Positions 35,463-37,131 of a stretch of 64,000 nucleotides of DNA are shown in pieces. A program made the position numbers and the translations under genes. The stretch is from an uncultured virus (IMG/VR IMGVR_UViG_3300014004_000001) (lineage: Duplodnaviria; Heunggongvirae; Uroviricota; Caudoviricetes): positions 62,001-126,000 of IMG/VR virus record IMGVR_UViG_3300014004_000001. One strand, given 5' to 3'. The notes beneath the pieces are model-generated. The model had not been told where the DNA came from. It saw only the letters and a list, made by a program, of their open reading frames with translations, and searched no databases. Positions within the stretch are counted from its first letter, which is position 1, and every line of letters starts with the position of its first letter.

Positions 35463-35539
35463 TGGTCGGGACGGAGTGATTCGAACACTCGACCTCTCGC
35501 TCCCAAAGCGAGCGCACTACCAAGCTGTGCTACGTCCCG
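35463..35539 (-). tRNA. tRNA-Pro(TGG)
   Basis: CTCGC-TTTGGGA-GCGAG; CCA. Confidence 0.95.
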
Positions 35540-35589
35540 TGATAACATTCTAAAGGTACACCGCAAAAGAAAATGTTCGGCGGCTCCTC

Positions 35590-35628
35590 GTTTTTAACTT
35601 CACACTTGAGGTAGTGACTCACCTTTGT
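35590..35628 (-). ncRNA. Solitary ToxI-like (pseudo-ToxI) pseudoknot RNA
   Basis: AGGTGAGTCACTACCTCAAGTGTGAAGTTAAAAAC versus recalled ToxI AGGTGATTTGCTACCTTTAAGTGCAGCTAGAAATTC; both stems preserved. Confidence 0.7.
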
Positions 35629-35632
35629 TATA

Positions 35633-35708
35633 TGGCTGGTCTGTCTGGATTCGAACCAAAGCTACGACAGTCAAAGTGTCGTGTGCTACCGGACTACACT
35701 ACAAACCA
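35633..35708 (-). tRNA. tRNA-Gln(TTG)
   Basis: CGACA-CTTTGAC-TGTCG; GCCA. Confidence 0.95.
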
Positions 35709-35712
35709 ATAA

Positions 35713-35805
35713 ATCATTTAATGAAGGGCAACCAGAAGAGGTGTGAGAGAAGGAGAAAACCATGAGTAAAAGAGAAAGTTTTCTGGCAACCCTTTATTAA
35801 ATAAT
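35713..35805 (-). ncRNA. Stem-loop RNA with a CU-rich anti-SD/anti-AUG loop
   Basis: 16-position plus 6-bp closing stems; loop ...TTACTCATGGTTTTCTCCTT... Confidence 0.55.
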
Positions 35806-35806
35806 T

Positions 35807-35880: not shown

Positions 35881-35891
35881 CCTACATCTTT

Positions 35892-35921
35892 ACTATACAA
35901 CATTTTACTATTGCTTGTCAA
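35892..35921 (-). promoter_or_regulatory. Sigma70-like promoter (tRNA cluster)
   Basis: TTGACA-18-TATAGT. Confidence 0.8.
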
Positions 35922-35930
35922 TAGTTTTAT

Positions 35931-36104
35931 TGGGGTGGGACAGTGACGAGTATCCCGTTGGGTGACTAATCCTACGTTCGGAATGTGTGGCTTCCTTCAT
36001 GTTGCACGCAACATGGTTCCGCGTTAAACACGTCGATGGAAAGATCCGCTTCTCTTTTGCTTCCATCCAACCCTACTCCGGTCAAGTTTCGGGTAACTCT
36101 TTTT
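35931..36104 (-). ncRNA. Structured ncRNA of about 170 nt (pseudoknot, hairpins, 8 GGA, ends CCA)
   Basis: GAGTT/AACTT plus ACCC/GGGT pseudoknot, GATGGAA/TTCCATC, CATGTTG/CAACATG, GGGATA/TGTCCC. Confidence 0.55.
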
Positions 36105-36109
36105 GTGAT

Positions 36110-36195
36110 CAACACAATACTAAGAACACTGTCTTTCGAGCAGACCTTGTGCACAGGATACGACGATCAATCACAGTGCTCTTAATGTTGTGTTG
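36110..36195 (-). ncRNA. Long hairpin RNA in the tRNA-Thr trailer
   Basis: 22 of 23 positions paired (two G-U), 40-nt interior. Confidence 0.6.
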
Positions 36196-36268: not shown

Positions 36269-36270
36269 AA

Positions 36271-36351
36271 TGCTGGGACTCGGCAGGATTCGATACCTGC
36301 AATTCCAGAAGCCTATTGGCGACTGGGGGTTTACCTTAACTCTACAAGTCC
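36271..36351 (-). pseudogene. tRNA-like gene with a remodelled anticodon arm
   Basis: Acceptor GGACTTG/CGAGTCC, T arm GCAGG-TATCGAAT-CCTGC, arm CCAG-TC-GCC-AATA-GGC-TT-CTGG, no CCA. Confidence 0.7.
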
Positions 36352-36358
36352 ATAATTC

Positions 36359-36487
36359 TTAAATACTTTGGAGCCTTACTGACAAACCGTTAGTTTGTAA
36401 CATAGCGTATTTATATTCTGGAGCACCGCCTGTGAATGTAATTCCAATACAAACTTTCTCAAGATCAAACCAATTATCAAATAACAT
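36359..36487 (-). CDS. Small hypothetical protein (42 aa) within the tRNA cluster
   Basis: GGAGG RBS; MLFDNWFDLEKVCIG...; not in ORF track. Confidence 0.55.
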   Translation of the reverse strand: MLFDNWFDLEKVCIGITFTGGAPEYKYAMLQTNGLSVRLQSI

Positions 36488-36507
36488 AAGAACCTCCAGT
36501 TTAAATT

Positions 36508-36591
36508 TGATGTGAGATGATGGATTCGAACCACCGCGCCTTTCAGAAGGGATTTACAGTCCCCCGCAATCGACCACTCTGCCAATCTCAC
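36508..36591 (-). tRNA. tRNA-Tyr(GTA), 3' end encoded as TCA
   Basis: GGGGA-CTGTAAA-TCCCT, long variable arm. Confidence 0.92.
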
Positions 36592-36896: not shown

Positions 36897-36904
36897 ATAC
36901 ATTT

Positions 36905-36934
36905 AATCTAACACAGAACGATGTTGATTGTCAA
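36905..36934 (-). promoter_or_regulatory. Sigma70-like promoter (tRNA cluster)
   Basis: TTGACA-18-TAGATT with extended -10 TG. Confidence 0.8.
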
Positions 36935-36944
36935 CACCTTTTAA

Positions 36945-37130
36945 AACATTTTATTATGAATGGTGACTCCACCAACCCCCGTTCTCCACGAACGGTACTC
37001 TTCGAGCAATCTACCCTTGCAATCAAACGTTGTACACCGTTAGCTTGCTCATGCATATTTGCCTCATTCTCTGCCAACCATGATCAGTGGTAGGGTTCAA
37101 ATCACTTGAGCTAATTCATACTAAAATGTT
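36945..37130 (-). ncRNA. Multibranched ncRNA of about 185 nt in the tRNA-Arg trailer
   Basis: 16 of 17 positions paired in the closing stem; GAGCAA/TTGCTC, CCGTTC/GAACGG, AACCC/GGGTT. Confidence 0.6.
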
Positions 37131-37131
37131 C

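Follow-up and report, generated by a model that had tools for sequence, protein, structure and literature searches.

A solitary ToxI-family unit among the tRNA genes of an Escherichia coli phage: a likely RNA decoy for ToxN

Introduction

Embedded in the tRNA gene cluster of an E. coli phage, we found a single and complete copy of a type III antitoxin repeat. Judged by homology and covariance modeling, this element is a genuine ToxI-family unit, not merely a ToxI-like one; it shares ancestry with the 38-nt repeats of the ToxIN systems known as cluster 4, which plasmids of E. coli and other gamma-proteobacteria carry, and its features suggest an orphan, single-copy RNA antitoxin segment that probably acts as a decoy for the toxin ToxN. 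The element was detected in a window of 64 kb, by which we mean the whole stretch of DNA that was analyzed, and the genome to which this window belongs is that of a 153,095-bp E. coli phage with terminal repeats. Its tRNA region is 97.7% identical to that of Escherichia phage phiWec179 (Phapecoctavirus).

ToxIN serves as a model of abortive infection and is studied with T4-like and T5-like coliphages as model phages. To our knowledge, the sole RNA counter-measure to ToxIN on record is one laboratory-evolved case, that of phage phiTE from 2012. Once a phage shuts down transcription in its host, ToxI is no longer supplied and the toxin is set free (PMC13728456; Manikandan et al., 2022, PMC8860590, citing Guegler and Laub).

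Results

A single unit in the spacer between two tRNA genes

The minus strand of the window carries 11 tRNA genes, and the 93-nt spacer that separates tRNA-Gln from tRNA-Pro contains, on the same strand, a 35-nt ToxI-family string (35624..35590; Table 1). As a previous sequence-only reading of this DNA had stated, the unit is located directly 3' of tRNA-Gln, its start being positioned 8 nt past the 3' end of this gene; the interval 35590-35628 given in that reading comprises the 35-nt string and four bases of the spacer. Neither ARAGORN (with default settings, with relaxed settings, and with introns allowed) nor the Rfam model RF00005 at E<=10 detected a tRNA or tRNA-like gene in the region 35540-35632.

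Table 1. Features of the ToxI-family unit and its surroundings (positions refer to the window).
Feature	Positions	Strand	Basis
Solitary ToxI-family unit, full length, E. coli 'cluster 4' type	35590..35626	-	Match to model R1; 33/36 versus repeat 1 of pCV839-15-p3
Predicted pseudoknot stem 1	35609..35624 (35624-35621 with 35612-35609; encloses the 5' strand of stem 2)	-	4/4 pairs canonical
Predicted pseudoknot stem 2	35600..35617 (35617-35614 with 35603-35600)	-	4/4 pairs canonical
3' single-stranded tail including the terminal A-run; putative ToxN binding/cleavage site	35591..35599	-	Identical to the plasmid-repeat tail in alignments
A-run	35595-35591	-	
Phage-specific 3' extension with hairpin (35584-35580 with 35564-35560)	35545..35589	-	Alignment to T4-like copies
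tRNA-Gln (UUG), immediately upstream, same direction	35633..35708	-	ARAGORN and Rfam tRNA model, 59.1 bits
tRNA-Pro (UGG), immediately downstream	35463..35539	-	ARAGORN and Rfam tRNA model, 67.1 bits
Sigma-70-like promoter, 11/12 consensus matches, 18-nt spacer, upstream of tRNA-Gly	35892..35921	-	Consensus match only

When scanned for promoter consensus sequences, the DNA yielded 6 sites versus 3.9 +/- 2.1 in shuffled sequences. The site at 35921-35892, placed ahead of tRNA-Gly and 270 nt upstream of the unit, is a candidate promoter for the sub-operon to which the unit belongs, and its position would fit the idea that the dose of unit RNA is supplied by the tRNA operon. The minus strand of the tRNA cluster has additional promoter-like sites at 36934-36905 and 37523-37495, and the same cluster possesses other long spacers (35709-35806, 35881-36193, 36269-36508, and 36897-37131).

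Contigs from four RNA-library runs revealed the presence of relatives, some of them with a different spacer. On a metatranscriptome contig of one such relative (run X13), 157 bases (35469-35627, that is, most of tRNA-Pro together with the unit) are swapped for 69 other letters, so that some relatives differ at this spacer.

Homology and covariance place the unit in the ToxI family

A BLAST comparison of the 93-nt spacer with 72,556 plasmids retrieved 16 matching records, the best of them with 94.6% identity over 37 nt that extend exactly across the unit. Aligned with the toxI array of the E. coli plasmid pCV839-15-p3, the unit is identical at 33/36 aligned positions to repeat 1 and at 29/36 to repeat 2; the corresponding values are 25/37 for the cluster-2 repeat of plasmid pNMEC-O75B and 25/36 for the phiTE repeat. 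Our covariance model R1, built solely from 17 aligned bacterial repeats, matched the minus strand at 35590-35626 over its full length (model positions 1-38) with 48.4 bits and an E-value of 4.3e-9 in a search space of 95.7 kb, both strands included. The second-best R1 match within the 64-kb window scored 10.7 bits (E 2.8), and the phiTE locus reached 9 bits.

The ToxI repeat that the sequence-only reading had used for comparison is present, letter for letter, in the toxI array upstream of the annotated toxN gene on the E. coli plasmid pNMEC-O75B, and the compensatory changes that it had noted relative to this repeat are real. These changes mark membership in another natural subfamily, the E. 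coli cluster 4, and not a divergence within a mimic. The check suggested at that time was a search with RF02519, the Rfam model of ToxI, which has 34 positions and a gathering score of 50 bits. A permissive scan of 401 bases yielded no match to it at the site (E<=10), and the best score of this model on the whole phage genome, 10.8 bits, was obtained at another place. Since RF02519 likewise misses phiTE, with its published pseudo-ToxI, and three genuine toxI arrays, the model is too narrow and its negative outcome here is uninformative.

Exactly one copy of the unit exists in the 153,095-bp genome, so the proposed lack of a tandem array stands. The proposed lack of toxN holds even beyond the window, as no match to PF13958 was found at E<=1 in the whole genome, while the same search recovered ToxN in 4/4 array-bearing plasmids used as positive controls. 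There is no terminator-toxN operon downstream of the phage unit; tRNA-Pro comes next instead. Collectively, the R1 match, the array homology, and the missing PF13958 match bear out the central claim that this phage, which lacks toxN, carries a solitary unit of a type III antitoxin (ToxI).

The pseudoknot and its tails

Both stems of the pseudoknot are as previously proposed, with Watson-Crick pairing at 8/8 positions, and the A-run 3' of the pseudoknot is present as well. We tabulated the pairing in 32 distinct units, of which 17 are bacterial and 15 are from phages. Of the central G-C pairs in stem 1, one is retained in 31/32 units and the other in 32/32, and the sole exception is a compensatory A-T pair in Serratia phage CHI14. 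The outer pair of stem 1 is C-G in 13 units, A-T in seven (including that of the window), and non-canonical in 12, and its inner pair is T-A in 16, T.G in one, A.G in seven, and A.A in eight. The third pair of stem 2 is A-T in 27 units, G-C in three, G.T in one, and A.C in one; the remaining three pairs of this stem are invariant. The predicted pseudoknot pairs hence covary across the 32 units.

All five ToxI clusters of E. coli share G5, A6, U12, A19, A20, G21, and U22 as well as both central G-C pairs in stem 1 (PMC8860590), and at the sequence level the window unit possesses every one of these bases. The only part of the units that varies in length is the loop after stem 1, where a change in length is tolerated in ToxI (PMC3475682). 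The 5' tail of the window unit resembles that of the first repeats of arrays, the leader included, and is unlike that of internal repeats; its 3' tail is the plasmid-repeat tail. ToxN enzymes cleave at A-rich sites, between two A residues (PMC8860590); the A-run of the window unit is followed by a C and lacks a site of the AA/AU type. Furthest from the consensus are the T4-like copies, which have non-canonical outer or inner pairs in stem 1 and whose loop is shorter and lacks one A. These deviations suggest that some of the copies may be decaying.

The sequence-only reading had also considered a competing fold that might mask the pseudoknot. Such a fold is indeed part of the minimum-free-energy structure, but the 93-nt spacer folds no more stably in this nested form than shuffled sequences do (z 0.15), and the closing helix is confined to Phapecoctavirus and absent in the T4-like copies. 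We consequently rejected it as a candidate structure.

Bacterial relatives of the unit

We inspected five array-bearing plasmid loci with 6, 2, 6, 4, and 3 repeats, and all five have a terminator and a ToxN gene behind the array. Tandem 38-nt repeats are present on Shewanella baltica pSBP3 (6 copies), E. coli pCV839-15-p3 (2 copies), and a Pantoea agglomerans plasmid (6 copies). A promoter-like site lies ahead of these three arrays, and behind them follow a terminator hairpin and an open reading frame that encodes a protein of the ToxN_toxin family (PF13958; 1.3e-40, 7.6e-40, and 3e-39). The same layout is found on a Serratia nevei plasmid with 3 repeats and on a Vibrio navarrensis plasmid with 4 repeats of 35 nt. 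Manikandan et al. (2022, PMC8860590, Table S2) assigned the locus on pCV839-15-p3, with its two 38-nt repeats, to 'ToxIN cluster 4', whose 5 members possess ToxN proteins of 197-198 amino acids and 2-3 repeats of this length. The ToxN proteins from the solved complexes are more distant from the cluster-4-type ToxN (E. coli 7d8o, E 2e-25; Pectobacterium 2xd0, 1.5e-24).

Among sequenced hosts, the cognate toxIN locus is seldom encountered: it was present in 14 of 72,556 plasmid records, and no match was obtained in 5,426 complete E. coli genomes. In a large protein collection, homologous ToxN proteins form 34 clusters, each represented on 1-9 contigs, from Escherichia, Pectobacterium, Proteus, Yersinia, Klebsiella, Providencia, Shewanella, Vibrio, Aliivibrio, Idiomarina, and Arsenophonus. 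These genera overlap with the host genera of the phages that carry the unit.

A scan with the core pattern recovered two loci in viral contigs and five in genome contigs, four of the latter from Arsenophonus and one from Idiomarina. The four Arsenophonus genomes (L022-L025) each have one unit, or one unit plus a fragment, and a terminator, and by eye their toxN frames appear to be broken by early stops; judged from their sequences, these loci look like decaying toxIN systems in endosymbionts, and they were kept out of the case for the sufficiency of a single repeat. Stand-alone single ToxI units with a promoter-like site and a terminator were seen on the Vibrio alginolyticus plasmid pMBL128 (L043 ~860-960) and on a 925-kb replicon of Vibrio vulnificus (L044 ~860-960). 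A ToxN gene was not found anywhere on either of these two replicons, and their units look, as far as can be read from the DNA, like orphan RNA antitoxin genes on plasmids.

Spread of the unit among phages

A 41-nt query that represents the unit matched 156 of 50,697 phage records, at one place per record and with no expansion seen. The carriers belong to the Phapecoctavirus, T4-like, and T5-like groups, to CR3, and to phages of Vibrio, Serratia, and Shewanella. On 15 phage loci, that of the window and 14 others, R1 scored between 29.5 and 60.6 bits, and in all 14 annotated phage loci the flanking genes are co-oriented with the unit. A search for ToxN (PF13958) in ime09, TrudiGerster, and CR3 found none. 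Both T4 and phiTE are without this unit subtype.

The surroundings of the unit differ between these phages. It is located between tRNA-Gln and tRNA-Pro in the Phapecoctavirus phiWec190, between tRNA-Gly and tRNA-Gln in the Certrevirus CR3 (with a core that equals the plasmid repeat), in the 44-nt gap between tRNA-Ile and tRNA-Met in the T5-like Epseptimavirus TrudiGerster, and 7 nt before tRNA-Asn on the IMG/VR contig L021. In TrudiGerster, CR3, L021, and Phapecoctavirus, the unit lies within 3-8 nt of a tRNA end; in Vibrio phage R16F, it is found 125 nt ahead of two tRNAs. The Tequatrovirus phages ime09 and AV121, two Mosigvirus phages, and the Serratia phages WSPA and CHI14 carry the unit right after rIII. 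Lastly, it is positioned between protein-coding genes in the Vibrio phages P018-4 and 3.058.O and in Shewanella phage KASIA, in the latter between those for the terminase and the portal.

Such a distribution bears on the possibility that the phage units are inert relics, that is, functionless scars of a recombination between a phage and a toxIN plasmid comparable to the hijack seen in phiTE-F. Recombination of this kind is documented (PMC3475682), the unit is like the first repeat of an array with its leader included, the cognate systems are rare, and some of the T4-like copies have a degraded look. However, the core is near-invariant in 156 phage records that represent unrelated lineages and different genomic places, the changes that did occur preserve pairing (C-G or A-T at the outer pair of stem 1; G-C to A-T in CHI14), and the unit is always co-oriented with its neighbors. 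Furthermore, neutral scars of 35 nt would not keep 88-100% identity across families whose intergenic DNA does not align otherwise. We regard it as unlikely that the units are relics.

The repeated association with tRNA genes could, alternatively, reflect a structural or regulatory phage RNA that is unrelated to ToxN, for instance a processing or spacer element of tRNA operons, a tRNA-like RNA, or a ligand of another host factor, with which toxI shares ancestry or from which it was borrowed. This reading would account for the fact that at least four phage groups have the unit within a tRNA cluster, and for a 3' extension that is phage-specific and structured. We nevertheless consider it quite improbable, as ARAGORN and Rfam, relaxed settings included, detect no tRNA in the spacer, the unit occurs outside tRNA clusters as well (after rIII in the T4-like phages, between terminase and portal in KASIA), and ToxN is the sole biochemically understood partner of this RNA family.

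A conserved 3' extension of the phage units

The 45 nt that follow the unit are absent from the plasmid arrays and common to T4-like phages. Between the window and the Tequatrovirus and Mosigvirus copies, the extension region is 85% identical over about 76-78 nt, and the closing pair of its hairpin is C-G in the window and T-A in five other aligned sequences. The hairpin loop contains an insertion of ~50-110 nt with its own inverted repeat in AV121 (L036:745-830) and phiWec190 (L038:760-880), which may be a small mobile insert. We also aligned the extension to four plasmid regions, with the result that it resembled neither a decayed second repeat nor a former toxI terminator any better than shuffled sequences did (131 to 449 of 500 shuffles reached the score); neither candidate is thus supported.

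According to a consensus fold, which is derived from 4 sequences with one compensatory pair, the 3' tail of the unit pairs with the end of the extension. As for its role, the conserved extension with its hairpin most likely serves to stabilize the RNA or to present the 3' tail. An RNA directed at ToxN in a non-stoichiometric manner, be it a cleavable sponge or sensor or the antitoxin of an unrecognized phage toxin, appears very unlikely to us: the A-run and the base-paired 3' tail could form a cleavage-dependent switch and precursor ToxI is the preferred substrate of ToxN (PMC5086642), but the fold behind such a switch is based on those 4 sequences and one compensatory pair, no ToxN-family gene exists in the window phage or in three other carriers, and the tRNA-cluster settings come without an adjoining protein gene.

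Discussion

The homology to cluster 4 repeats, the conservation of the pseudoknot, the solitary state of the unit, the absence of toxN, the spread among phages, and the co-orientation with neighboring genes are the observations at hand, and from these we infer that the phage unit is transcribed, processed, and able to bind and inhibit ToxN. With its 5' tail, its H-type pseudoknot, and its A-rich 3' tail, the element has an architecture that lends itself to the following model. The unit would be transcribed within the phage tRNA operon, and the tRNA-maturation enzymes would probably release it, through the action of RNase P at the downstream tRNA and through the 3' maturation of the upstream tRNA. 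In the window phage, the RNase P site of tRNA-Pro would set the 3' end of the spacer RNA; in general, processing would leave an RNA of near unit length, and one of 44 nt in TrudiGerster. Upon infection, the shut-off of host transcription would cause the labile ToxI of the host to decay, and the phage RNA would then occupy the ToxN endoribonuclease, which would thereby stay inactive so that abortive infection would not ensue. Given that the phage unit has the specificity-setting tails of cluster 4, it is predicted to target a cluster-4-type ToxN and not the enzyme of Pectobacterium or of cluster 1.

Several findings made with ToxI and phiTE are pertinent to this model. Single ToxI repeats are antitoxic when they are over-expressed (PMC3475682), and the pseudo-ToxI of phiTE, when expressed, suppresses ToxN-mediated abortive infection (PMC3475682). 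The wild-type phiTE locus is not protective, and escape required an expansion of the repeats (PMC3475682). From this need for expansion, it follows that one copy may give too little dose.

The pseudo-ToxI of phiTE (Blower et al., 2012, PMC3475682) is also the known system that is most readily compared with our element. Both are non-coding ToxI-like sequences encoded by a phage without toxN, and both would represent RNA mimicry of a type III antitoxin. Like the window unit, the phiTE copy is found in the tRNA region of an rV5-related myovirus, where it is located ~300 nt after tRNA-Tyr. The wild-type locus of phiTE consists, however, of 1.5 repeats, does not make up one full RNA unit, and needed expansion (PMC3475682), whereas the window phage has one complete unit. 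The two differ, moreover, in their ToxI subfamily, as is evident from the 25/36 identical positions and the R1 score of 9 bits, and the window element stands apart by its conserved hairpin extension at the 3' end and by its presence in many phage families.

The phiTE pseudo-ToxI (NC_020201 106714-106772; L014:1215-1273) is 100% identical over 59 nt to tandem plasmid arrays of Lelliottia amnigena and Hafnia paralvei, and 98.3% identical to an array of ~13 repeats directly upstream of the annotated ToxN on pPA21A of P. atrosepticum 21A (L046:530-1010). This identity to plasmid arrays indicates that the phiTE pseudo-ToxI is a copy of a genuine second ToxI subfamily, and not a degenerate mimic of the pECA1039 ToxI. 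By eye, the flanks of the phiTE copy (L014:1190-1310) display a D-arm-like motif upstream and, downstream, a T-arm followed by an acceptor-CCA-like sequence; ARAGORN reported no tRNA at this locus, either with introns allowed or with lowered thresholds.

With the bacterial cluster 4 ToxI of pCV839-15-p3, the phage form shares the same pseudoknot core and the same 3' tail. The bacterial form is organized as a tandem array, of 2-6 copies in the loci inspected, that has a promoter of its own and is followed by a terminator and, immediately behind, by toxN. The phage form, in contrast, is single, lacks toxN, resides in a tRNA operon, has a loop that is one base shorter, and continues with another sequence after the A-run.

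Phages reportedly also carry solitary CRISPR-repeat units, the RNA anti-CRISPRs (Racrs) said to have been described by Camara-Wilpert et al. in 2023. The logic is alike, in that a mobile element keeps a single copy of a repeat RNA of a host defense as a decoy; the defense system and the RNA are different, and the two elements are unrelated in sequence. TifA of T4-like phages is a counter-defense against ToxN as well (PMC10853763, PMC9391042), yet it is a protein that binds ToxN and RNA (PMC10853763, PMC9391042), whereas the window element is an RNA copy of the antitoxin. T4, the model phage for TifA, is without this unit.

More broadly, and tentatively, solitary ToxI units may constitute a widespread and horizontally exchanged class of RNA anti-defense elements, 'orphan RNA antitoxins', a proposal that we find attractive without yet leaning toward it. 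Its members would occur in many unrelated virulent phages (Phapecoctavirus, T4-like, T5-like, Certrevirus, Vibrio, Serratia, and Shewanella phages) and, as stand-alone genes that consist of a promoter, a unit, and a terminator, on some Vibrio replicons, each of them matching the toxIN subfamily of its host range. The pseudo-ToxI of phiTE could belong to the same orphan class, since it matches real arrays that plasmids of Lelliottia, Hafnia, and P. atrosepticum 21A carry. The repeated placement in tRNA operons would allow the tRNA-maturation enzymes, and not ToxN, to cut out an inhibitor of unit length.

The full-text literature that we searched contained no mention of ToxI-like units in these phages except for phiTE, and gave the phiTE pseudo-ToxI and TifA as the phage answers to toxIN. 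Likewise, the TifA protein is the sole anti-toxIN entry in the toxIN passages of a 2026 review on counter-defense (PMC13728456). RNA mimicry of ToxI as such is therefore already known; new are the solitary full-length form, the placement in a tRNA operon, the 3' extension, the subfamily, and the breadth of phages.

Provided that the decoy model is true, wild phages of many families would already hold a ready RNA antitoxin, and the carrier phages should form plaques on hosts with a cluster-4-type toxIN. The tRNA clusters of phages would thereby gain a second role as platforms for the expression and processing of anti-defense RNAs. The unit itself accounts for conserved RNAs of formerly puzzling nature in the tRNA spacers of phages and after rIII, and it supplies a simple sequence signature with which such RNAs can be annotated.
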